Assembly: GCA_965246885.1 (NCBI GenBank)
Contig: OZ251992.1
Span: 1,600,001 to 1,664,000, forward strand
Reading direction: 5' to 3'
Source: Abditibacterium sp.
GTDB taxonomy: Bacteria > Armatimonadota > Abditibacteriia > Abditibacteriales > Abditibacteriaceae
Length of the DNA stretch: 64,000 nt
Part shown: piece by piece, positions 33,535 to 46,099 of the stretch
How positions within the stretch are numbered: the stretch's first letter is position 1
Layout of the letters: every line of letters begins with the position of its first letter
Program-made: the position numbers and the translations under genes
Notes under the pieces: model-generated
The model's input: only the letters and a program-made list of their open reading frames with translations
What the model was told of the DNA's origin: nothing
The model's database searches: none

Positions 33535-34188
33535 TTAAGCTCCGAACTCCGATACGCGGAATTGGACGTGGAGTTTCATCTCCACGTCTTCGGCGTGCGA
33601 AATCGCAATGCCCAATTCTGCCTCGGAGACGCGCGCCCGCGACATCATGCTTAGGTGGGCGGTTCTGCGGTGAGTTGAACTTTGCTCCTGCGTGCCTTCC
33701 CACTCCTCGTTCAACTCGTAGACGCCAAGCAGACGCACGCCCAGAGTGCGCGCGATAAAGCGGGCGCGTTCGAGCGCCAGTTCTAAACATCTCGCGCGCA
33801 ATTGGTCGCGTAAAGGAGTTTCGTCGACGAATCTCCACTCCAAACCCACCAGCGTCGCGTTTTTGGCGCTCGTTATAACGCCGATGGCCTCGGCGACCCG
33901 CTCGAGGGGCACCTTCTCGATAAGGAGCGCGTAGCTGACGCTGGAACTCTTGGAAAAGGTGCCGCTTTGGGTGTGTGCACTTACGCTTTCAACTTTGATT
34001 TGCGCTTCGGTGACGCCCACAGTTTTGAGCGCCGCCACCAATTCGGCGACTTCGCGCGCTTTTTGGAGCGCCACCGCGCCCGAAAAGAGCGCCGCGCCCG
34101 CCACCGTAACAGAAATGTCGGCGGCATTGGCTTCAACGCGCGCGGTTTGTAAAACCTCGACGGCAATGAAATCGGGATGATCGTTCAA
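33535..34188 (-). CDS. SIMPL (DUF541) domain protein
   Basis: Pattern [10 protein letters not shown]...ALKTVGV...[22 protein letters not shown]...LHVQF. TTG start overlaps the hisF stop. Confidence 0.7.
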
Positions 34189-34943
34189 CTGCGTACCTCC
34201 ACGCCTCTTACCCTTAGCTCTGCCTTGATTTCTCCAATCGAAAGCAGTCCGTAGTGCACTACGGACGCGACCAAGGCGGCTTCGGCTCCGCCGATAGTGA
34301 GGGCGTCGTGGATGTGGTCAATGGTGCCCGCGCCGCCGCTTGCAATCACGGGGATGGAAAGGGCATCGGCGACGGCGCGGGTGAGTTCGAGGTCGTAGCC
34401 CGCCTGCGTGCCGTCGCCGTCCATCGAGGTGAGCAGGATTTCGCCCGCACCGCGCGCTTCGGCTTCGCGCGCCCACGCGACGGCACTTTTGCCGGTCGGG
34501 GTGCGCCCGCCATGCAGGAAGACCTGCCAGTCTTCCTCGCCGCTCCGCTTGGCGTCTATGGCGACGACCATACATTGCACGCCAAAGCGTTTGGCGCCCG
34601 CTTCGATGAGTTCGGGCGAAGTGAAGGCGCTCGTGTTGATGAACACTTTGTCGGCGCCTGCCGCGAGGATAGCGGCCATTTCGTCGGTGGTTTTCAGGCC
34701 GCCGCCGACGGTGAAGGGGATGAACGCTTGCTCGCACACGCGCGCGGCGAGGTCAGCAACCATGTCGCGGCGCTCGTGACTGGCGGAAATGTCGAGGAAC
34801 ACGAGTTCGTCGGCACCGGCGCGGTCGTAAAAGGCGGCGCGCTCGACGGGGTCGCCCGCGTCGCGCATGTTCTCGAACTGCACGCACTTCACGACGCGCC
34901 CATCCTTGATGTCGAGCGCAGGGATGATTCGTTTGGCTGGCAC
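34185..34943 (-). CDS. hisF: Imidazole glycerol phosphate synthase cyclase subunit
   Basis: [53 protein letters not shown]. Confidence 0.97.
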
Positions 34944-35021
34944 CTCCTTAGTGTGCGTGGAGCCGCCGTGCGGCGCGTCACGCCGTTTGGTATGATACCA
35001 GTTGGCGTAATGCCCTTTGGT

Positions 35022-36167
35022 ATGATTGACAACCCCTTCGAGTTTGGGCGGGAACTGCGGCGCGAGGAGCTAATAGACCGCCGCGACGAACTCGCGCGCG
35101 TGAAGCGGGCGCTCGGCGAGGGTGGCAAATTGTTCCTCATCGGCCCGCGCCGCTATGGGAAGACCTCGCTTCTCGCCGTCGCGCAAACCGAACTGCAAGC
35201 GAGCGGCGTGCAGGTGTTGCGCTTCAATGTCGAAGCGTTCTCGACGGTCGAAGCCCTCACGCGCGCCCTTGTCACCGAAGCCGCCAAGCGCCTCAGTGGG
35301 CCGGTGCAAAAGGTCGGCGAGCGCATCCGCTCCCTGTTTGGCGTCCTCAAGCCCGAACTGGCCTTCGACCCCGCCAACGGTAACTGGTCGGTCGCCCTCG
35401 GCGCGGCGCACCGGCCCACCGAAGTTCCGGGCTTTATCGAAGCTTTGGACGCGCTGGAACGCTTGGCGGGCGAGCAGCCGCTCGGACTGGCGCTGGACGA
35501 GTTCCAGCAGTTGCTCGTTATTGGCGGCGACGAAGCCGAAGCGCAACTGCGCGCCGCCGTGCAAACGCACAGCCACCTCGGTTACGTTTTCGCTGGCTCG
35601 AAAACCCGGCTTCTGTCGCAGATGGTGCTCGATCCGGCGCGCCCCTTCTACCGCTTGGGCGAGCCGCTCTTCTTGGGCCAAATCCCGCGCGCCGAGTTCC
35701 TGCCCGTTCTGCGCGCGCGCTTCCAGAGCGCTGACATCGCCATTGAAGACGGCGCACTCGGTGCCCTCCTCGACTTGGCGGACGACGTGCCCTACAACGT
35801 GCAAGCGCTCGCGCAAAACGCCTTTGAGGACGCCCGCTTCTCGCACCGCCTCAGCGTGGCGGACGTGGAGGGCGCGCTCTTGGAGTGGGTGGGCAGGCTC
35901 GACCCGCTTTACACGCAGCTCTGGCTCGACCTGTCGCCCATCCAAGGCCAAACCCTGCGCGCGGTGCTCGACTTTGGCGGGCAAAACCTGCAAAGCGCCG
36001 CCGTCGCCCGCAAGCTCAAGCGCCCCTCCTCTTCGATTCAAAAGTCCCTTGCCGTCCTGCTTGAACGCGACATCCTGCGCACCGAAGAAGAAGCGGGCCG
36101 CTTGCGCTACCATTTCGACGACCCCTTCTTTGCCGCTTGGATTCAAAGGACAATCGCGGAGAATTAA
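35022..36167 (+). CDS. P-loop ATPase (archaeal-ATPase/STAND-like) with C-terminal winged helix
   Basis: NPFEFG...LIDRRDEL, Walker [11 protein letters not shown], Walker B LALDEFQ, FAGS, PFY, GxP-like VPYNVQ; C-terminal wHTH ending [12 protein letters not shown]. Confidence 0.88.
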
Positions 36168-36209
36168 AGCCCCTCGCGCGCCGCGCCCGTTTGCGATAAA
36201 ATCGGCGGC

Positions 36210-39200
36210 GTGTTTTCTCCGGCTTGGTCGGCGTTGCTCGCGCCGCGTTCGTTTAACCCCGTCGTCGCGGGCGCTCAGGTACGGGCGCTCCGGCAAAGCG
36301 GCGACTCCTCCGAAGCGCGCGAGTTCGTCGGCGCGTTCTTGGGATTCGACCCGCGCTCGCGCTTCGCGCTTCGCACCACCTTGGAATCCCTCGCCAAACC
36401 GACCGGCGGCGCATTTTGGGTGAATGGCGCGTTCGGGTCGGGCAAGTCGCACTTTTTGGGAGTCCTCGCGCTGGTCTGCGATGGCGTCGGATGGGCGGAG
36501 TTGGCTGCCAACTTCCCCGAAATGGCGCCCGCGCTCGTGCCGCGCATGGTCGTGCACATCCCCCTCGACGACTACAACGCGAGCGAGTGGAGTTTGGAAA
36601 ACGTCTTCTGGCGCGAAACAAGGCGCGAATGGGAATCCAAAATCGGCGAATGGCCCGCGTCAGTCGAGTCCGCGCGCGTCGGGAGCCGCGCCGAAGCGTT
36701 GGAAGCGCTGCTTTCCGAACTCAAAGCGCGCGAGTGGGGCGGCTTGGCGCTGTTCTTGGACGAACTATCGCTGTTTCTTGGGGGGCGGACGCACCGCGAA
36801 TTGCAAAGCGACGCTTCCTTTTTGCAGTTTCTGGGGCAAAGCGCGCGGCGCGACGCCTTCTGGGTGGTGGCGGCGCTGCAAAAGACAATTGAAGACTTGG
36901 GCGGGCTGGAACCGTACGCTTTGGGCCAAATCCGCGACCGCTTCCAAACCTTGCCGCTTTCGCTCGCGCATTTGCCCGCGCTCATCGGGCGCCGTTTGGT
37001 CGAAGTGCGCGACGAGAGTGCCTTGGAACGCTGGTGCGACGAGTCTCTGCGCGAGCGCGAAGCGCGCTTTGGGGTGCTGCCGTTTGGCATTCAAGAGTGG
37101 CGCGGCGTGGCACCGTTTCACCCGATGACGGTGGAACTGCTGGAAGCTGTCGCGGGCCGCTTCTTGTCGCGCACGCGCTCGGCGCTGCTGTTTTGCGCGC
37201 ACGCTTTGAACGAGGCGCAACGCCAAAGCGCCGAGGAGCGCGTGCTACCGCCCGCCATCTGGGACTACTTCGCGCCCGAAATCGAGGGGCACCCCGATTG
37301 GAGCGTGCTCGCCGAAGCGGAAGCGGCGTGGCTCGAATCGATCGCGGCGGCGCCTCCTCCTGAGCGCGACGCGCTCAGTTTAACCGCCAAGTTCCTGCTC
37401 TTGTCGCGCGTCGCGGGGCGCTCCACGACGCCCCTTGCTCTTGCCCAAGCGCTCGATTTTGCGCACGAGAACCCGTCCGAGTGGGCGCGCTACCTCTTAG
37501 AAAAGCTGCGGCGGGGCGCCGGTTTTTTGGCCTTGGAGCGCGGCGACGACGCGGGCGGTGACCGCTACGCGCTCGATTTGGGCAAGCGTGTCGGCGAAAG
37601 TGCGCGGCGCTTGGTCTTGGGCGCGGCCAGCGAAATCGAGGACGGCGACGCGCGTTTAACCCAAGCGGCCATTGCCAGTTGCAAATCGGCCAGTTGGCCC
37701 TTAGCCGAAATGGGCGACGACGGGCGCAGCGTGTCTCTGTTCTGGCGGCACTCGCCGCGCCGCGTCCGCGTCGGGGTTTGGCACGATGGGGCGCTGACCG
37801 CGTGGACGAACCGCTTCGCCACCCTGCGCGAACAAGGCGACGCGGCGCTACTGCTTTTCTGGCCGCCCTTTACTCTTGCGCGCGGTGAAGCGGCGGGACT
37901 TCTGCTGGCGCCGCTCCTCACGGGCGCGGCGGGAAGTTGGGGAGACGAGCGCGCGCGGGCGGCGGTGTGGGCGTGGCGTCCGCGCTTCCCGACGCGCGAC
38001 GAGTGGGAGTTGGCGCGCGAGGTGGCGGGCGCGCACTTGGCCCGCCAAGACCCCAACTTGCTCGACAACAGGCGGGGGCGCGCCGTCTTGGAACACCTCG
38101 ACCGCGAGCGGCCCGCCCGCGAGTCGGCGCTGGAACGGGTGGTGCGGCGCTTGTATTTGGAAGGCGACTTGGTGCTGGGCCAAGGTGCGGCGCTCGACGC
38201 GGGCGAATTGGCGGGGGGCGAGGACTTCGGCGCGGTGTTGGAAGCAGTCGCCGACTTCGCTCTGCCCCACCTGTTCGGGCGCTTTTCGGGTGTGGCGCCG
38301 CGTGCCCGCGTTTTGACGCCCTCCAACGCCGATGCACTCTGCCTCGAACTGCTGCGCCGCCCCGCCAACGAGCCGTTTTTCGCGCCCAGTTTGGAGAGGC
38401 TGGCGCGTCACCTCGGTGAGCCGTTGGGCGTGGCAACGCCAAGCGCGGGACGCTGGAAGATGGGGGTGGGCAACGACGATTTAGCCGCGCACATCCTTGC
38501 TCTGGTGGGCGCCGGGGCGTCGCTGTCGGCCCTCAACGAGGAGCTTGGGCGCGACGAATGGGGTTTGTCGGAAGAGATGCAAGCCGTCGCGGTGTGCGCC
38601 CTCTTGCGCGCCGGGGAGTTGGTCGCGCTCGACGCGCGCGGGCAAACTCTGGCGCCCGCCTCTATCGGTTTGCCCCTGCGCCGCTCGGTTCATCGCCTCG
38701 TTCGCGGCGCGCTTCCGGCGGCGGGGCAGTGGATACGGTTGGCAAGCGTGTGTAACGCGCTGCTGGGCGAAAAAATCGGCGCCCCCTCGTTCGAGGAAGC
38801 GGCCCGCGTCGCGGCCCTGCTCGGTGCGTGGCGCGATGAAACGCAGTCCCGCCTTGAACTGGCCCGCGCCCGCGCCGCGCAACTTCGCCGCGCGTTGGGG
38901 CACTCGCCCGCGCAATGGGCCGACTTCGAGGCCGCGACGGAAACCGTCGCGGGCGCCGTTGGGGATTCGCGCACCGACGACCAAGCCCTGCTTTTCGAGC
39001 GCGCCGCGAACTGGGACTTGGCGCTTTTAGCGCCCGCTTTGGCAAGCGCCACCCGCTTCGCTGGCGCTTTGGAGGGCGCCGGGGAGTTGCTGGCGGGACA
39101 CGCGCTCCTGTCCCACCCCGACCTCGCGTGCCCACCGGAGTTAGCCGACGAACGCGCGGCGCTGTTGGAAACTTTGGCGAGCGGCGAAGCCGCGCTCTTT

Positions 39201-39860
39201 GATGCCGAACTCAAACCGCGAGGGCGCGAGTGGCGCGCCCGCTACGCCGAACTTTACGCCGCTTGGCACGGCGCCCAGCACGACGCGGCGCGCTGGAATT
39301 CGCTCGCGCGCTTGGCGCGCGGCGATGAACTGCGCGCGCTGGAACGTTTGGCTACCCTCACGCGCCGCCGTTTCGACGCAGGTGTTGCCATCCGCGCCGA
39401 ACTTGACGCAGCCCTTGAAGCGCGTTGCGGGCGTCCCGACGCCGCGCAGGTCGCGCAAGTGGCGCTGTCGCCCGGTGATGCGGTGTGCAATGCGTGCGGG
39501 TTGAAGTGGGGCCAGCGTTTAATGCTGCCCGATGCACGCGCCCTTGAAGAACGCATCGGTGCCGCCCTTGCCGCCTTTCGCGCCACCTTGCGCGAACCCG
39601 CCACCGCGCGCTTTTTGGAACGCCGCGCGCCGGAATTGCTCGCGCCCGACGCCGATTTGCCCGCGCTTTTCGACCGCGACACCTTGCAACTGTTGGACGA
39701 AGCCTTTGCGCCGCGCCGCCGCGTCGCGCGCTCCTTGGCCGAACTGCGCGGGGCGCTCGAAGGCCTCCAAACGCGCGGCCAGTGGCACGGCGCCCTGCTC
39801 GCGTGGTTGGATGGCGGCGCGGCGTTGGGCGATGAGGACGAGATGGAGTTGGGTGACTGA
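36210..39860 (+). CDS. Large BrxC/PglY-like (DUF6079-like) P-loop ATPase, 1216 aa
   Basis: Walker A VNGAFGSGKSHFL, Walker B LFLDELSLFL, IRDRF, PFHP, IWDYF; C-terminal C...CNACG Zn motif. Confidence 0.75.
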   Translation: MFSPAWSALLAPRSFNPVVAGAQVRALRQSGDSSEAREFVGAFLGFDPRSRFALRTTLESLAKPTGGAFWVNGAFGSGKSHFLGVLALVCDGVGWAELAANFPEMAPALVPRMVVHIPLDDYNASEWSLENVFWRETRREWESKIGEWPASVESARVGSRAEALEALLSELKAREWGGLALFLDELSLFLGGRTHRELQSDASFLQFLGQSARRDAFWVVAALQKTIEDLGGLEPYALGQIRDRFQTLPLSLAHLPALIGRRLVEVRDESALERWCDESLREREARFGVLPFGIQEWRGVAPFHPMTVELLEAVAGRFLSRTRSALLFCAHALNEAQRQSAEERVLPPAIWDYFAPEIEGHPDWSVLAEAEAAWLESIAAAPPPERDALSLTAKFLLLSRVAGRSTTPLALAQALDFAHENPSEWARYLLEKLRRGAGFLALERGDDAGGDRYALDLGKRVGESARRLVLGAASEIEDGDARLTQAAIASCKSASWPLAEMGDDGRSVSLFWRHSPRRVRVGVWHDGALTAWTNRFATLREQGDAALLLFWPPFTLARGEAAGLLLAPLLTGAAGSWGDERARAAVWAWRPRFPTRDEWELAREVAGAHLARQDPNLLDNRRGRAVLEHLDRERPARESALERVVRRLYLEGDLVLGQGAALDAGELAGGEDFGAVLEAVADFALPHLFGRFSGVAPRARVLTPSNADALCLELLRRPANEPFFAPSLERLARHLGEPLGVATPSAGRWKMGVGNDDLAAHILALVGAGASLSALNEELGRDEWGLSEEMQAVAVCALLRAGELVALDARGQTLAPASIGLPLRRSVHRLVRGALPAAGQWIRLASVCNALLGEKIGAPSFEEAARVAALLGAWRDETQSRLELARARAAQLRRALGHSPAQWADFEAATETVAGAVGDSRTDDQALLFERAANWDLALLAPALASATRFAGALEGAGELLAGHALLSHPDLACPPELADERAALLETLASGEAALFDAELKPRGREWRARYAELYAAWHGAQHDAARWNSLARLARGDELRALERLATLTRRRFDAGVAIRAELDAALEARCGRPDAAQVAQVALSPGDAVCNACGLKWGQRLMLPDARALEERIGAALAAFRATLREPATARFLERRAPELLAPDADLPALFDRDTLQLLDEAFAPRRRVARSLAELRGALEGLQTRGQWHGALLAWLDGGAALGDEDEMELGD

Positions 39861-40181
39861 GTGAGCGGCCTAATTCTTCAGCTGCCCCAGTTAATTCATT
39901 GGGGAATTCTATAATTTTGTCAATGGTTTACCCATGCGACGGGAAGAATTAGCCGCGCAGAGCATCCACCGATGTAAATCATCGAAAAAATTAGCGCGTT
40001 CCCGCGAAGAATTAGCCCGGTGAGAGCGTCGCCGCCCTCTGTCATTGGAGCGCAGACGGCGGGAAGTTAGGGATTTTCCCAAGCAATGCACCTCGCTTTG
40101 GCGCTGTTCTTGCTTTGGACAAGCTTAATGCTTTCCGCGCCACCGTTTTTCGGGAGCGCTGGGGCAAAGGACACACAAACT

Positions 40182-40409
40182 ATGAAAACCACCATCCAAC
40201 GCGGCGTCACGGCGACCTTGCTCGCCGTCATCACTGCAGGCACCTTGGGCCTTGGCGCCCCTCAGCCCGTTCAGGCCAAAGGCTTTATCCGCCGCCACCC
40301 GTTCGTCACCGGAGCCGCCGTCGTCGGGGGCGCGATGATGTATCGCCACCACCAGAAGAAAAAGGCCCGCAAGCGCGCCCGCGCGATGATGGCCCGCCCC
40401 GTCCGCTAA
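40182..40409 (+). CDS. Small secreted basic protein (75 aa)
   Basis: Signal peptide ending PVQA; mature part KGFIRRHPFVTGAAVVGGAMMYRHHQKKKARKRAR; followed by a terminator. Confidence 0.65.
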   Translation: MKTTIQRGVTATLLAVITAGTLGLGAPQPVQAKGFIRRHPFVTGAAVVGGAMMYRHHQKKKARKRARAMMARPVR

Positions 40410-40425
40410 GCCTTGGCGCCTCGTC

Positions 40426-40460
40426 AACAGCCGCTTCTCTTTCGAGAAGCGGCTGTTTTT
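40426..40460 (+). terminator. Rho-independent terminator
   Basis: aacagccgcttctc-tttc-gagaagcggctgtt followed by a T tract. Confidence 0.8.
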
Positions 40461-40502
40461 GTTGTCCGAGCGCCGGAAGTGTCTGCCAAACTGGAAGGGC
40501 TA

Positions 40503-41849
40503 ATGCTCCTCCAGCTTTCCACGACGCACCAGCCCGCGACGGATTTGGGGTTTCTGCTCGCCAAAAATCCGGCTCGCGCGCAAACGTTCGACTTGTCGTT
40601 TGGGCGGGCGCGCGTCTTTTATCCCGAAGCGAACGAAGAGCGTTGCACGTTCGCGCTTTTGTTGGATGTGGATTCGGTTGCGCTCGTGCGCGGCAAAAAC
40701 CAAGGGGAAGGGCTGCTGTCGCAATACGTCAACGACCGGCCTTACGCGGCGACGTCTTTTCTGAGCGTGGCCATCGCGCAGGTATTGCGCTCGGCGATGA
40801 GTGGACTGTGCAAGGAACTCCCCGAACTCGCGGCGACGGCGCTGCCGCTCCGAGCGCAGGTCGAGGGTGTGCCCGCCTCGGCGCAGCAGTTGGAAAAGCT
40901 GTTCGCACCGTTGGGTTGTGCAGTCGAAGCGCAAGCGGTCGGCGCGCGGCATTGCCGTTTGACGCTCGAAGCGACGGTGAAGCTGTCCGATTTACTGTCG
41001 CATCTGTATGTCCTCATCCCGGTGCTGGATGACACCAAGCATTATTACGTGGGCGATGAAGAGGTGGAGAAGCTGTTGCGGCGCGGCGCAGGCTGGCTCG
41101 AAACCCACCCAGAGCGCGAGTGGATTGTGTCGCGCTACCTCAAAAAGCAAAAGCACCTCATCCGCGTGGCGCTGGAGCGTTTGTCGCCCATCGAGGAAAG
41201 TGACGACAAGGATGAGGAGGAAGCGCGCGTCGAGCGGCCCTTGTCGCTGCATCAGATACGCTTGGAAACCGTCGCACAGGTTTTGAAGGAAGCGGGCGCC
41301 AAGCGCGTGTTAGATTTAGGTTGCGGTGAGGGGCGCTTGGTGCGCGAACTGTTGCGCGACCCGTTCTTCGAGTTCGTGCGCGGCGTGGACGCCTCGCACC
41401 GCGCGCTGGAGTTGGCCGAAGACAAACTGCACGTCGAGCGCATGACGGAGCGCCAACGGGCGCGCTTGGAACTGGTCTTCGGGGTGCTCACTTACCGCGA
41501 CGCGCGCTTCGAGAACTTCGACGCGGCGGCGCTGGTTGAGGTCGTGGAGCATCTCGACCCGGCCCGTTTGCCTGCCTTCGAGCGGGTGGTATGGGAGTTC
41601 GCTCGCCCAAAGCACATCGTCGTCACCACGCCCAACCGCGACTACAACGCGGTGTGGGAAACCCTGCCCGAAGGCAAACTGCGCCACCGCGACCATCGCT
41701 TCGAGTGGACGCGGGCCGAGTTCCAAAGCTGGACTGAGCGCGTCGCGCTCAAGTTTAACTACACCGTCGAAACCCGACCATTGGGGCCAGAGCACGAGGA
41801 ATACGGCGCGCCCTCCCAGATGGCCCTCTTCCAGCGAGACAACAAATAG
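40503..41849 (+). CDS. hen1: 3'-terminal RNA ribose 2'-O-methyltransferase Hen1
   Basis: MLLQLSTTHQPATDLGFLL.KNP, QYVNDRPY, HLYVLIPVLD..KHY, VLDLGCGEG, EVVEHL, TTPN, RHRDHRFEWTR. Confidence 0.95.
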   Translation: MLLQLSTTHQPATDLGFLLAKNPARAQTFDLSFGRARVFYPEANEERCTFALLLDVDSVALVRGKNQGEGLLSQYVNDRPYAATSFLSVAIAQVLRSAMSGLCKELPELAATALPLRAQVEGVPASAQQLEKLFAPLGCAVEAQAVGARHCRLTLEATVKLSDLLSHLYVLIPVLDDTKHYYVGDEEVEKLLRRGAGWLETHPEREWIVSRYLKKQKHLIRVALERLSPIEESDDKDEEEARVERPLSLHQIRLETVAQVLKEAGAKRVLDLGCGEGRLVRELLRDPFFEFVRGVDASHRALELAEDKLHVERMTERQRARLELVFGVLTYRDARFENFDAAALVEVVEHLDPARLPAFERVVWEFARPKHIVVTTPNRDYNAVWETLPEGKLRHRDHRFEWTRAEFQSWTERVALKFNYTVETRPLGPEHEEYGAPSQMALFQRDNK

Positions 41850-41941
41850 CCACAGAGAACGCGGAGGACATCACGAAGAGGCACAGAGGTTTATGATTTC
41901 TCTCCGTGCCTCTTCGTGATGTTCTCCGCGTTCTCTGTGGC
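41849..41941. repeat. Long inverted repeat (40-bp arms, 13-nt loop), MITE/REP-like insertion between hen1 and pnkp
   Basis: gccacagagaacgcggaggacatcacgaagaggcacagag (41849-41888) and its reverse complement at 41902-41941 with 2 mismatches. Confidence 0.85.
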
Positions 41942-41952
41942 CAATCCAAGCC

Positions 41953-44481
41953 ATGCACATTTCCCTTCCTGAACCCTGCTTAGTCGTGCTCGTTGGCGCG
42001 AGTGGCGCGGGTAAATCTTCCTTTGCGCGGCGCCACTTTCTGCCGTCGGAAGTCGTATCGAGCGATTTTTGCCGCGCGTTGGTGTGCGACGACGAGAACT
42101 CCCTCGAAGCGACAAGTGACGCTTTCGATTTGCTGCATACCATCGTCGGCAAGCGGCTTCACAACTTGCGCCTCACGGTCGTGGACGCGACCAACGTGCA
42201 GGAGTCGAGCCGCAAATCGCTCGTGCAGTTGGCGCGTAGGCACCACTTGTTCGCGGTTGCTGTGGTTTTGAACGTGCCCGAAAGCGTTTGTCAAGAGCGC
42301 AATGAAAAGCGGCCCGACCGCAACTTCGGGCCGCACGTGGTGCGCAACCATTTGCGCGAATTGCGTGGCTCTTTGCGACATCTGGAGAAAGAGGGGTTCC
42401 GGCGCGTGTTCATTTTAAACGGCGTCGAGGAAGTCGAGGCGGCAACCGTTGGGCGCGCGCCACTTTTTAACGACCGCCGCGACTTGGCGGGGCCATTCGA
42501 TATTCTGGGCGACGTGCACGGTTGCGGCGACGAATTGGAATTGCTGCTGGCCAAGCTTGGTTATGCGCGCGACGGCGACGGGACGTTCCGGCACGGCGAG
42601 CGGACGGCGGTGTTCGTCGGCGACTTGGTAGACCGGGGGCCGCGCGTGGCCGACGTGTTGGACATCGCGCAAAAGATGATCGCGGCGGGAAGCGCCTTGT
42701 GCGTGCGCGGCAATCACGACGACAAAGTTTTGCGCTATTTAGAAGGCAAAGCGCCCAAAGTGGCGCACGGTTTGGACGCGTCCATCGCCGACTTGGAGCG
42801 GTGCGACGACGCGTTTCGTGAGCGGGCCAAAGAGTTTTTGGACGCGCTGATCTCCCACTACGTGTTGGACGGTGGGCGGTTGGTCGTGGCGCACGCGGGG
42901 TGCAAGGCCGAGTTTCAGGGGCGTTCGAGCGGCGCGGTGCGCTCGTTTTGCTTGTATGGCGAAACGACGGGCGAAACCGACGAGTTCGGCCTGCCCGTCC
43001 GTTACCCTTGGGCGCAGGATTATCGCGGGCGGGCGGCGGTGGTTTACGGACATACGCCCGTCCCGCGCGCCGAGTGGCTCAACAATACGTTGGATATAGA
43101 CACCGGTTGCGTCTTCGGCGGCAAGTTGACCGCGCTACGCTGGCCCGAACGGGAGTTCGTGTCGGTAGATGCGCTCCAAACCTACGCCGAACCGGTGCGG
43201 CCCTTGGGCTATGTGGACGGCATGGGCCAAATCGCGGCGGACGAAACGCTCGATTTTGCGGATGTTTCGGGCAAGCGTGTGTTGGATAATGCGTTCTTGA
43301 CGCGCGTGACTATCGGCGCCGAACAGGGCGCGGCGGCTTTGGAAGTGTTGTCGCGCTTTGGAACCGACCCGCGCTGGCTGATTCACTTGCCGCCCACCAT
43401 GTCGCCGACCGCGACGGCCCCGGCGGAATTGGGGTTGCTCGAACACCCGGCGACGGTGTGGCATTATTTCCGGGAGAATGGCGTCCAAACCGTCGTATGC
43501 GAGGAGAAACATATGGGGTCGCGCGCCGTGTGCGCGGTGTGCCGCGACGAAACGGCGGCCATGCGGCGCTTTGGCGTGCCGGGCGAAAGCGGCGCGATTT
43601 GGACGCGCACCGGGCGGCGTTTCTTCGATGATTTGGCGCTGGAGGGCGAAGTCTTGGAGAGGCTACGCGGCGCCATGACGCGGCTGGGATGGTGGGAGGA
43701 GTGGGCGTCGGACTGGTTTTGTTTGGACGCGGAACTCTTGCCTTGGTCGGCCAAAGCGCAAGAACTTATCGCCCGCCAATACGCGCCCGTCGCCGATGCG
43801 GGAACGTCCGCCCTCGCCGCCGCGCAAAGCGCGCTTGATATGGCGGCCAGTCGCGGCCTTGATGTCGGCGTGTGGGGAGCCGAGAACGCCGTCCGTGAGG
43901 ACTCTTTATCACGTTACCGCGCCGCTTTCGAGCGGTATTGTTGGCCTGTCGCGGGGGTAGAGGATTTGAAGTTCGCGCCGTTTCATCTTTTGGCGAGCGA
44001 AGGCGCCGTTCACACGGACAAGTCGCACGTTTGGCACATGGAAACCCTCGCTCGTTTAGCGGGAGAGGAGCCGATTTGCGTGGCGACGCCCTTTCGCGTC
44101 GTGGATTTAGAGGATGCCGCCGCCATCCGCGCCGCCGAAGATTGGTGGCTCGAACTAACGCGCGCGGGCGGCGAGGGCATGGTGGTGAAGCCGCTCGATT
44201 GGATCAACCATCACGACGGGCGGCTCGTGCAGCCCGCGCTCAAGTGTCGCGGCGCCGAATATCTGCGCATCATTTATGGGCCGGAGTATCTGTTGCCCGA
44301 AAACCTGTCGCGCCTGCGCAAGCGCGCCCTCGCCGCCAAGCGTTCCCTCGCCCTGCGCGAGTGGGCCTTAGGCATGGAGAGCTTGCGCCGCTTTGTGGCA
44401 GGCGAAGGGTTGCGCCGCACACACGAGTGCGTCTGGGGCGTCCTCGCGCTTGAAAGCGAGCCGGTAGACCCGCGCCTGTGA
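41953..44481 (+). CDS. pnkp: Polynucleotide kinase-phosphatase-ligase Pnkp
   Basis: Kinase GASGAGKS and VDATN; metallophosphoesterase GDVHG, GDLVDRG, GNHD, YGHTP, DTGC; ligase EEKHMGSR, EGMVVKP, KCRG.EYLRIIYG, ESEPVDPRL. Confidence 0.97.
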   Translation: MHISLPEPCLVVLVGASGAGKSSFARRHFLPSEVVSSDFCRALVCDDENSLEATSDAFDLLHTIVGKRLHNLRLTVVDATNVQESSRKSLVQLARRHHLFAVAVVLNVPESVCQERNEKRPDRNFGPHVVRNHLRELRGSLRHLEKEGFRRVFILNGVEEVEAATVGRAPLFNDRRDLAGPFDILGDVHGCGDELELLLAKLGYARDGDGTFRHGERTAVFVGDLVDRGPRVADVLDIAQKMIAAGSALCVRGNHDDKVLRYLEGKAPKVAHGLDASIADLERCDDAFRERAKEFLDALISHYVLDGGRLVVAHAGCKAEFQGRSSGAVRSFCLYGETTGETDEFGLPVRYPWAQDYRGRAAVVYGHTPVPRAEWLNNTLDIDTGCVFGGKLTALRWPEREFVSVDALQTYAEPVRPLGYVDGMGQIAADETLDFADVSGKRVLDNAFLTRVTIGAEQGAAALEVLSRFGTDPRWLIHLPPTMSPTATAPAELGLLEHPATVWHYFRENGVQTVVCEEKHMGSRAVCAVCRDETAAMRRFGVPGESGAIWTRTGRRFFDDLALEGEVLERLRGAMTRLGWWEEWASDWFCLDAELLPWSAKAQELIARQYAPVADAGTSALAAAQSALDMAASRGLDVGVWGAENAVREDSLSRYRAAFERYCWPVAGVEDLKFAPFHLLASEGAVHTDKSHVWHMETLARLAGEEPICVATPFRVVDLEDAAAIRAAEDWWLELTRAGGEGMVVKPLDWINHHDGRLVQPALKCRGAEYLRIIYGPEYLLPENLSRLRKRALAAKRSLALREWALGMESLRRFVAGEGLRRTHECVWGVLALESEPVDPRL

Positions 44482-44629: not shown

Positions 44630-46099
44630 ATGCGACACATCCACCTGTTCGCGTTGCTCGCCGCAACGCTCGCGCCTCTTGGCGTTGCTCACGCGCAAAA
44701 GCGCATCCTCACTCCCAACGCGCCCGCCACTGAAATTGGCCAAGCCGCCATTTCGCGGCAACTGCTGCAACGGATGGCGTTGCGTTCCTCCATCAACGCC
44801 AACTTCCTCGTCAAATCGCCGACCATATTCGCGGCGCGCGGCGAGTTGGGCACCGACAAACTCAATCAAACCGTCGAAGTGCGCGGCTTTTACTACGACG
44901 GCTCGATTCCGATGGTCGTGGACGATATCGAGCGCGTCAACTGCGATACGCTCATGCCCGCGCAGTCGTATGTGCCGCTCGCCCAAGCTGTTCCCGACCT
45001 CAAAAACGGCGACGAAGTGACAGTTTCTGGCCGCTTAGTGACTCCCCAAGCCATTGGTTTGAAGCTCGAAAACGAGGGGAGCGTCTTAAAATTTGAGACG
45101 CCCGTCCAACAAGCCGTCAAGCGCGTCGGAACGATTAACGCTTCCAAACTGCGCCTCGACCCAAACCTCAAAGTGCGGATTCCGGGCGGCATTTTCCAGC
45201 TAACGCCCCAGAAATACGCCGTGCTGTTGGTCGGCGGCGGCGACGCGGCCAACAATCACCTGCGCTATTGGAATGACCTAAAGACCATGAACGCCATTCT
45301 GGTTGCGCGCGGCTACAAGAAGAGTAACATCACGGTCATTTACGCTGATGGTGTCGCCAAAGACGCTTCAATGTCTGTCAACTACTCGGCCTCCAAAGCC
45401 AATGTCAACAAAGTCTTTAAGGACTTGGGCGACAAATTGGGCGCCCAAGATGAACTGTACGTGATGGTCAACGATCACGGCGGCGGCTTTTTGGGCCAGC
45501 AATCGGGCAGTAACGGCCCCGGCTCCTATGGAGCGCTTCTCGACGCGAGCAACTCGGTCGGCACCGCATGGAGCGAGGCCGCTTTCAACCGGGATTTGAA
45601 CTACGACGGCGACAAGAACGACACCGTGCATTTCCACAACACCGTCTGTTTGTGGGGCGAACTGATGACCGAAGATGAGTTTGGCGCCGCGCTCGACCAA
45701 GTGAAAAACGTTAAAACGGAGATGCTTCAAATGAAGCAGTGTTTTTCGGGCGGTTTCACGCAACGCCTCAACCGCGCGAACCGCGTCGTGATGTCCTCGT
45801 GCGGCCCGAACGAATTTTCGTGGGGCCACTCCAAAGGCAACTACGGCTCATTTACCTACTACTATTTCTCGGCGCTGACGGGGAAGACGCCCGATGGCGG
45901 ACTCATTAACGGTAGTTCTTCCGTCAACGCTGACGCGAACGGCGACGGTAAAGTCACGCTCGCCGAAGCGTGGAACTACGCCAAATCGAAAAACCCGGCC
46001 CCGGAAACCGCGCTTTATGCGGACACCGCTTCGGCCCCAGTCTCGGGCACCATGCCAATGGGGGGCCAAGGTGCTCTGGGTGGTTTCATCACGCCGTAA
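44630..46099 (+). CDS. Secreted clan CD cysteine peptidase (C13/legumain-like)
   Basis: Signal peptide; KYAVLLVGG, YWND, His motif NDHGG, Cys motif QCFSGGF; EF-hand-like DANGDGKVTLAE. Confidence 0.75.
   Translation: MRHIHLFALLAATLAPLGVAHAQKRILTPNAPATEIGQAAISRQLLQRMALRSSINANFLVKSPTIFAARGELGTDKLNQTVEVRGFYYDGSIPMVVDDIERVNCDTLMPAQSYVPLAQAVPDLKNGDEVTVSGRLVTPQAIGLKLENEGSVLKFETPVQQAVKRVGTINASKLRLDPNLKVRIPGGIFQLTPQKYAVLLVGGGDAANNHLRYWNDLKTMNAILVARGYKKSNITVIYADGVAKDASMSVNYSASKANVNKVFKDLGDKLGAQDELYVMVNDHGGGFLGQQSGSNGPGSYGALLDASNSVGTAWSEAAFNRDLNYDGDKNDTVHFHNTVCLWGELMTEDEFGAALDQVKNVKTEMLQMKQCFSGGFTQRLNRANRVVMSSCGPNEFSWGHSKGNYGSFTYYYFSALTGKTPDGGLINGSSSVNADANGDGKVTLAEAWNYAKSKNPAPETALYADTASAPVSGTMPMGGQGALGGFITP

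Follow-up and report, generated by a model that had tools for sequence, protein, structure and literature searches.

A partner-less, lineage-fixed BrxC-family ATPase in Abditibacterium and other Armatimonadota

How bacteriophage exclusion (BREX) systems stop phages is still open, and their ATPase, BrxC, has been described as a central switch that depends on BrxB, PglZ and PglX. What, then, would a BrxC relative do in a genome in which these partners are not found? The question is raised by a 64,000-nucleotide stretch of Abditibacterium sp. (contig OZ251992.1, positions 1,600,001 to 1,664,000; here called the window, in whose own numbering positions are given), which encodes a 1216-aa ATPase at 36210–39860 on the plus strand. 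An initial annotation had seen this gene as part of a candidate defence module of two ATPases linked to RNA repair, or else as a domesticated or split BREX. We find that the ATPase is a member of the BrxC family and not a BREX system: a lineage-fixed protein that persists intact and under selection without BrxB, PglZ or PglX being found. The host genome, G000, is 92.7% complete and consists of 2 contigs.

The ATPase and its missing partners

In profile searches, the ATPase matched PF19557 (DUF6079) over residues 70–315 (1.2e-13, 49.9 bits; cut-off 23) and, weakly, the PADLOC BrxC model (3e-9). The equivalog for type-1 BREX BrxC, NF033441, stayed at 32.6 bits, far below its cut-off of 400, and canonical DUF6079 proteins score 884 bits with DUF6079 compared with 39–99 for the window family; a Pfam scan found no DUF499 match. 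A sequence search of solved structures returned Walker-A-length matches only, an Atlas look-alike search returned DUF6079 clusters only, and the nearest named homologues belong to Abditibacterium and Abditibacteriaceae; the cultured Abditibacterium utsteinense has one (P0060). When an AlphaFold2 model of residues 11–1210 (92 sequences; predicted local distance difference test score (pLDDT) 92.5, predicted template modelling score 0.56) was submitted to Foldseek, Acinetobacter BrxC chains took ranks 1–6, with 9zll and 9zdx on top, followed by ORC/Cdc6 proteins. The alignment to BrxC spanned about 570 columns of the N-terminal AAA+ and winged helix–turn–helix (wHTH) part (E 2.8e-8, template modelling score to target 0.50–0.57) at 13–16% identity. 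The ORC/Cdc6 AAA+ initiators (E 2e-6 to 1e-4) likewise combine an AAA+ domain with a winged helix, but the N-terminal third of the ATPase alone aligns with them; carriers have both DnaA and DciA, so nothing points to the ATPase as a replication initiator or loader.

Domains past the AAA+ part were named from secondary structure and from the BrxC architecture given in 10.1101/2025.10.09.681413 (an AAA+ domain, a wHTH, an alpha/beta domain, further wHTH units, a long arm of helices and a small domain at the end), which the secondary structure fits. The predicted order is AAA+, wHTH, alpha/beta, two more wHTH-like units, a long helical arm, a motif of three cysteines and one histidine, and a small C-terminal helical domain. 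The likeness to type-1 BrxC from Acinetobacter (PDB 9zll, 9zdx, 9zn5; PMC13326643) takes in length class and predicted domain order as well as the top Foldseek ranks.

The motifs singled out at the start (GAFGSGKSH, LFLDEL, PFHP and C1073/C1093/C1096) are all present. K79 of Walker A and D184 of Walker B are invariant in 58 sequences of the family, the Walker B glutamate (E185) is kept in 48, and R244 and R323, which by position may be the arginine finger and sensor 2, are each kept in 50. All 58 have the three cysteines and 57 have H1020; this Cys/His motif, a putative zinc site, is common to the window family and canonical DUF6079 proteins. The Walker A lysine and Walker B Asp-Glu pair that we tested for in the BrxC/DUF6079 family are thus in place, and the profile and fold comparison of 36210–39860 that the initial annotation had proposed turned out in favour of BrxC. 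On this profile and model evidence, the protein is a BrxC/DUF6079-type AAA+ ATPase with an AAA+ domain of the ORC/Cdc6 clade.

The initial annotation had recognized no pglZ in the 64 kb, and this absence extends to the whole of G000, in which the Pfam PglZ profile found nothing (controls matched). A profile of the PglZ domain of the sister family described below also found nothing in G000 (best E 0.83), though it detected ten PglZ rows in fetched loci. BrxB and BrxF (PF08747, NF033453) were not found in G000, again with matching controls, and a very diverged copy is possible. A 17-sequence family profile for BrxA-like proteins retrieved none from G000 (best E 3.1) or from 12 congeners, so that this gene was not found in the genus; Pfam BrxA and DUF4007 searches of G000 gave no match, with controls likewise silent. 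For PglX (NF033452), the best score in G000 was 52.9 bits against 500 and came from an Eco57I-type restriction–modification methylase 1.3 Mb away. No PglX/PglXI methylase was found at the G000 locus, where 3'-phosphoadenosine-5'-phosphosulfate reductase was not searched for, and a PglXI-like query met short N-terminal motif matches only. Searches of G000 for a dedicated tetratricopeptide repeat (TPR) partner returned generic TPR matches only. None of PglZ, PglX/PglXI, BrxB/BrxF or a BrxA-like protein, by which membership of any BREX type was judged, was therefore found in G000, including at any distance from the window, where a pglZ/pglX set had been suggested as a possibility to check.

G000 has a complete-looking BREX-related locus with its own ATPase (C1:3126371–3144155; L329), 1.5 Mb from the window ATPase. 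It comprises a DUF499 gene (with HEPN), a DUF1156 methylase in two frames and an SNF2/NOV_C helicase, and it adjoins a Cas3-containing CRISPR–Cas cluster. The window ATPase is not a member of such DUF499 BREX-related (BR) systems, which combine a DUF499 ATPase, a DUF1156 methylase and a helicase.

We then turned from G000 to the surroundings of the ATPase in other genomes, fetching 96 loci, of which 76 were distinct and 44 had at least 5 kb on each side. PglZ was found at none of the 76 distinct loci, neither brxF nor brxHII was found at the family loci, and no BrxB/BrxF-type recurrent neighbour was seen there. A full PglXI-like methylase is present at one distinct locus, the C-terminal part of one at one and a weak methylase match at one; the remaining flanks are varied housekeeping genes. 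The C-terminal part, in G027 (L038:7312–8229), covers only the last 306 aa and lies directly downstream of the ATPase. Together with the full methylase, in G038, it is possibly a remnant of an ancestral operon.

The only recurrent neighbour is a 285-aa gene beside the ATPase at 11 of the 76 loci. Its model (pLDDT 91) has the tandem HTH–wHTH fold of BrxA and SspB: a fold search gave Z 13.9 to BrxA 7zge (root-mean-square deviation 3.0, 179 aligned), 13.6 to 3bhw and 13.1 to SspB 6juf, with the next row at 8.5, and its Atlas look-alikes are weak BrxA clusters. This BrxA-fold gene occurs in at least 43 of 401 phylum genomes, 24 with the ATPase, 18 without it (families f21, f29 and f9) and one in f19. 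Among the 24 genomes with both, it lies directly upstream of the ATPase on the same strand in 14, and the two genes are unlinked in about 9. In the 18 ATPase-free genomes (L165–L179), it often adjoins an NlpC/P60-SH3 gene and has the look of a DNA-binding protein that was domesticated on its own.

Beyond low identity and the low equivalog score, the window ATPase differs from type-1 BrxC in that it does not lie in an operon, that BrxB, PglZ and PglX were not found and that it is fixed in host families. With type-3 BREX (brxF, brxC/DUF6079, pglXI, brxHII, pglZ, brxA), it shares the DUF6079 match, the BrxA-fold partner and, in one carrier, a PglXI-like methylase, but the window family forms a separate clade with far lower DUF6079 scores and loci at which brxF, brxHII and pglZ were not found. 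DUF6079/BrxC matches in Armatimonadota should not count as BREX systems.

Distribution and inheritance across the phylum

Among 40 relatives of G000, 33 have the big ATPase, one of which (G033) is a distant canonical BREX match, and four have PglZ. Extending the search to the 401 phylum genomes, with two candidates scored per genome, the family profile at E ≤ 1e-20 matched 124; setting aside four f19 proteins and two canonical BREX matches leaves 118 carriers. A second match was mostly the remaining half of a gene cut where a contig ends, or else a canonical BREX copy distinct from the family gene; G169 has a second C-terminal piece in addition to its main match. Presence follows host families, with f1 (20/20), f20 (9/9), f22 (9/9), f27 (7/7), f16 (6/6) and f26 (13/14) on one side and f12 (0/71), f15 (0/26), f24 (0/21), f29 (0/20), f17 (0/16) and f21 (0/11) on the other; a deeper look at five non-carriers gave one short weak match only. 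By contrast, PglZ is sporadic in the same genomes (36/401), occurring in 10 of the 118 carriers, always on other contigs, and in 26 of the 283 others.

Intact frames of 1150–1470 aa are found in more than 100 genomes, and the ratio of non-synonymous to synonymous substitution rates (dN/dS) of the ATPase is 0.06–0.15 in four pairs. Among 185,579 species genomes, searched with patterns built from the window family and hence biased toward it, there were 55 loci, 49 titled Armatimonadota or a sub-taxon and the other six without a taxon title. The 188 pattern matches in viral contigs included no family member beyond one 68-aa match.

The 39 sampled family members form one clade (SH-like approximate likelihood-ratio test (SH-aLRT) 100), in which every host family sampled at least twice is monophyletic; these are quick trees without an approximately unbiased test, for which 25 of 75 sequences were dropped as near-duplicates or long branches. 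The deep groups f11+f35, f23+f6+f20 and f51+f53+f16+f22+f36 recur in an RpoB tree of 28 genomes, which has an arbitrary root, leaves out G145 and G304 (split genes) and contains a wrong-strand open reading frame (ORF) as its G233 row. That tree places all five non-carrier families sampled in a single clade (97), nested next to f13 and f14, which are carriers; a gene present in the ancestor and lost once would fit this. Judged from these comparisons of sequences, the ATPase behaves as a vertically inherited, single-copy core gene, all-or-none by family. Of the initial alternative 'domesticated or split BREX', the first half is therefore upheld by a BrxC-like protein with a core-gene pattern and no partners found; the second is not, given PglZ in so few carriers and on other contigs.

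Origin and possible function

The sister clade of the window family (SH-aLRT 99) consists of DUF6079 proteins of 1300–1850 aa whose names come from Clostridia, Deltaproteobacteria and KSB1; in many of them the C terminus is a PglZ domain in which Asp/His motifs are conserved. We inspected 20 of 80 metagenome loci of this sister family (proteins P0195–P0272). A TPR gene was adjacent in 13 of 18 inspected loci (L248–L264, L280), directly or across RecQ, three loci having too little upstream sequence; RecQ or SNF2 helicases flank several loci, and no BREX methylase was seen at those inspected. No plasmid record covers the sister-family query beyond 21%. This family of TPR gene plus BrxC–PglZ fusion resembles the window family in its position in the trees, in a profile match over 1220 columns (E 2e-151) and in lacking a BREX methylase, and differs from it in having PglZ and TPR, where the window family has neither and BrxA instead. 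Because the sister lineage is methylase-free and fused to PglZ, the window family looks like a further-reduced branch that also lost PglZ. We found no description of the sister family in the literature searched. A partner-less, lineage-fixed BrxC in Armatimonadota was likewise not described there; that search covered neither subscription papers nor the supplementary files of the BREX survey PMC12839542, which may list such proteins. In its main text, the survey mentions neither Armatimonad nor Abditibacter, nor 'orphan' or 'solo'.

The trees suggest that the ancestor of the phylum had brxA–brxC, derived from a type-3-like BREX/PglZ lineage, that PglZ and the methylase had dropped away in its line, and that later losses would have left brxC alone in the Abditibacterium genus or brxA alone in other lineages. 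The phylum now offers a natural reduction series: brxC–pglZ–brxA with or without a methylase (f19), brxA–brxC only, brxC only (the Abditibacterium genus), brxA only (f21, f29) and a clade whose catalytic residues are eroded. One or two genes would thus suffice for testing BrxC's intrinsic activity on DNA. The f19 cassette (L204, L206–L209) is a separate one without brxF or a helicase; PglZ is present in 5/5 genomes, a methylase is adjacent in 2/5 loci, and one genome has a short pglZ and brxA only.

What the ATPase might do can be approached from type-1 BrxC. According to PMC13326643, the source for all statements on type-1 BrxC that follow, the protein on its own binds double-stranded DNA in a way that depends on ATP, forms back-to-face AAA+ dimers and rare, DNA-promoted heptameric rings, and dimerizes through its C terminus, and BrxA inhibits its DNA binding. 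By analogy, the AAA+ domains of the window ATPase would, on ATP binding, stack as rings on double-stranded DNA, which the wHTH and alpha/beta domains would grip; the C-terminal tip would dimerize and BrxA, where present, would damp DNA binding. The partners are gone, yet the parts that bind DNA and ATP are under selection; most simply, this would make the protein a clamp or scaffold on DNA that is gated by ATP and does a job for the cell. We give an even chance to a domesticated BrxC without a nuclease, an ATP-gated oligomer that binds DNA, acts by itself and serves to maintain the chromosome (through repair or recombination) and not to restrict phages. For this we count the all-or-none pattern by family, congruence with RpoB, purifying selection, invariant motifs, no PglZ at the loci, near-absence from viral contigs and helicases beside sister loci. 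The chances fall slightly short of even for the fuller history, in which the Armatimonadota ancestor captured a BREX core ATPase and turned it to housekeeping as a ring-forming, long-armed, nuclease-free protein, kept as one copy in about 25 families, while its BrxA-type regulator later went a separate way. If domestication is true, it would provide a natural experiment on the DNA action of BrxC without PglZ, BrxB and PglX, as well as an example of how an anti-phage component was domesticated at the depth of a phylum.

Several observations weigh against a housekeeping role. Every BrxC characterized so far acts, to our knowledge, in defence, and by conservation alone a housekeeping gene cannot be told from one with a fixed role in defence. 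In one clade (f16, f22, f26 and f36; for example, L040, L195, L183 and L197), the Walker B glutamate is replaced by aspartate and the two conserved arginines are lost, so that what is conserved may be something other than ATP hydrolysis; the clade still carries the gene in nearly all genomes. The ATPase was not found in whole large families and is hence not universally needed, and it evolves somewhat faster than its neighbours (73% identity versus 80–82% for pnkp/hen1). In G038, a carrier, a PglXI-like methylase lies directly downstream (L042:4636–7155; PADLOC PglXI 2e-91). DnaA, DciA and SMC are present in 5/5 genomes tested, carriers and non-carriers alike, and the ATPase is therefore no replacement for any of the three, a role that we considered and rejected.

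The protein might still be an immune factor that acts alone or with BrxA, its oligomers loading on phage or plasmid DNA and blocking replication without cutting or by recruiting a general host nuclease. The closest solved structures are of defence BrxC, the faster evolution and the BrxA-fold gene kept upstream in over half of the genomes with both genes point the same way, and BREX restriction reportedly proceeds without the need for wholesale DNA degradation (PMC13326643), with BrxC driving DNA binding alone. We nevertheless regard this as rather unlikely: PglZ is patchy in the same genomes, quite unlike a gene that is strictly fixed by family, present once and congruent with RpoB, no effector or self-marking enzyme travels with the ATPase, its flanks are not defence islands, and PglZ, BrxB and PglX, which methylation also needs, were reportedly required for restriction in all type-1 systems examined (PMC13326643).

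The partners might instead sit elsewhere in the genome as a split BREX, with PglZ-, BrxB/F- and methylase-like proteins too diverged for profiles. Dispersal does happen, as the unlinked brxA-like and brxC-like genes show, BrxB/F-type proteins are reportedly fast-evolving (10.1101/2025.10.09.681413) and G000 is short of complete. This arrangement is improbable given that the Pfam and NCBIfam profiles, including those for BrxB and BrxF, and the nearest-relative PglZ and BrxA-like profiles all came back empty from G000 and that its best PglX scorer is a distant restriction–modification enzyme far below the cut-off; we rejected it on these grounds. Less credible by a wide step is the idea that a BREX island decayed and left the gene as a relic without function. 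Partner genes are gone and one clade has lost catalytic residues, but intact frames in so many genomes and motifs invariant in 58/58 sequences speak otherwise, and purifying selection contradicts it.

Neighbouring genes at the locus

The region was initially read as five same-strand genes, and all five are present on the plus strand: an AAA-wHTH ATPase gene (35022–36167), the BrxC-like ATPase gene 42 bp further on, a 75-aa basic ORF (40182–40409) after another 321 bp, hen1 (40503–41849) and pnkp (41953–44481). Contigs from two public runs, possibly the assembly's own source, span the junctions between the two ATPase genes (34870–36693) and between the second and hen1 (36231–40674) with zero differences. 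The upstream protein, put at about 380 aa, has 381, with Pfam AAA_16 (6.6e-7) and AAA_14 matches and a C-terminal MarR_2/TrmB HTH. Both RNA-repair genes are full length and above curated cut-offs: hen1, for the bacterial RNA 3'-terminal 2'-O-methyltransferase, scores 630 bits with TIGR04074 (cut-off 340), and pnkp, for the bacterial polynucleotide kinase-phosphatase-ligase, scores 1290 bits with TIGR04075 (cut-off 750). The host-like, GC-rich codon usage noted for the BrxC-like gene was borne out by its GC content at third codon positions (0.79, compared with 0.78 for hisF), and so was the terminator at 40426, an intrinsic-terminator-like hairpin with a T-run (40426–40457, plus strand; -28.8 kcal/mol, z -5.1) that separates the upstream genes from hen1.

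A minimal two-ATPase defence system coupled to Hen1–Pnkp RNA repair would fit the short spacing on one strand and the presence of hen1–pnkp 4–5 kb downstream in G010 and G012 too (hen1 at 4.4 kb and 5.2 kb, respectively). Synteny rules it out at the genomic level, and we consider it extremely improbable. The AAA-wHTH gene was found at 0/76 distinct loci of the BrxC-like ATPase; its homologues occur in 2/40 relatives, on another contig or 0.64 Mb from the big ATPase, and the family is common and widespread (of 7997 candidates scored, 853 are homologues at E ≤ 1e-30). A divergent neighbour in the window, hisF (34185–34943, minus strand), directly abuts the BrxC-like gene in the four closest relatives, which marks the AAA-wHTH gene as a lineage-specific insertion between them. 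hen1–pnkp lies near the ATPase at just 2/76 distinct loci. hen1 is present in 21/40 relatives (22/41 genomes including G000) and pnkp in 24/41; hen1 lies 47 kb from the ATPase in G020, 392 kb in G009 and 2.46 Mb in G004, and was not found in 11 of 33 ATPase carriers (G000 counted among the 33), with linkage not judgeable in fragmented genomes. The gap in G010 and G012 holds other genes (VanW-like, TIR and unknown), and in the window the strong terminator stands ahead of hen1. Finally, a TAAAAT hexamer, a candidate leaderless promoter (region 36197–36209, plus strand), lies 7 nt 5' of the GTG start of the BrxC-like gene and is kept in five genomes (G000, G012, G010, G002 and G003), which suggests that this gene has its own leaderless promoter; when the region was scanned for the sigma-70 consensus, no promoter turned up.

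The neighbourhood comparison that the initial annotation had set as its own check thus went against a module. As far as gene order can tell, the AAA-wHTH gene, the 75-aa ORF and hen1–pnkp are neighbours unrelated to the ATPase: the five genes are real, stand together by chance and form no single defence module. The hen1–pnkp pair is an ordinary Pnkp–Hen1 RNA repair system that simply adjoins the ATPase in one sub-lineage, and the RNA-repair link can be dropped.

A few smaller features were seen along the way. By eye, an 11-bp direct repeat (34986–35026) lies just 5' of, and overlaps, the start of the inserted AAA-wHTH gene. The 75-aa ORF, assigned to no family, had no counterpart in the relatives' loci searched; its N terminus resembles a signal peptide by eye, and its weak look-alikes within G000 at C1:2772397 and C1:173426 (E 0.2–0.7) are perhaps a small secreted peptide family. 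In G006 (C38:171317–175941), both hen1 and pnkp have internal stops, and the BrxC-like gene of that genome is intact. Directly after pnkp, the window encodes a 489-aa Peptidase C13-domain protein (44630–46099).

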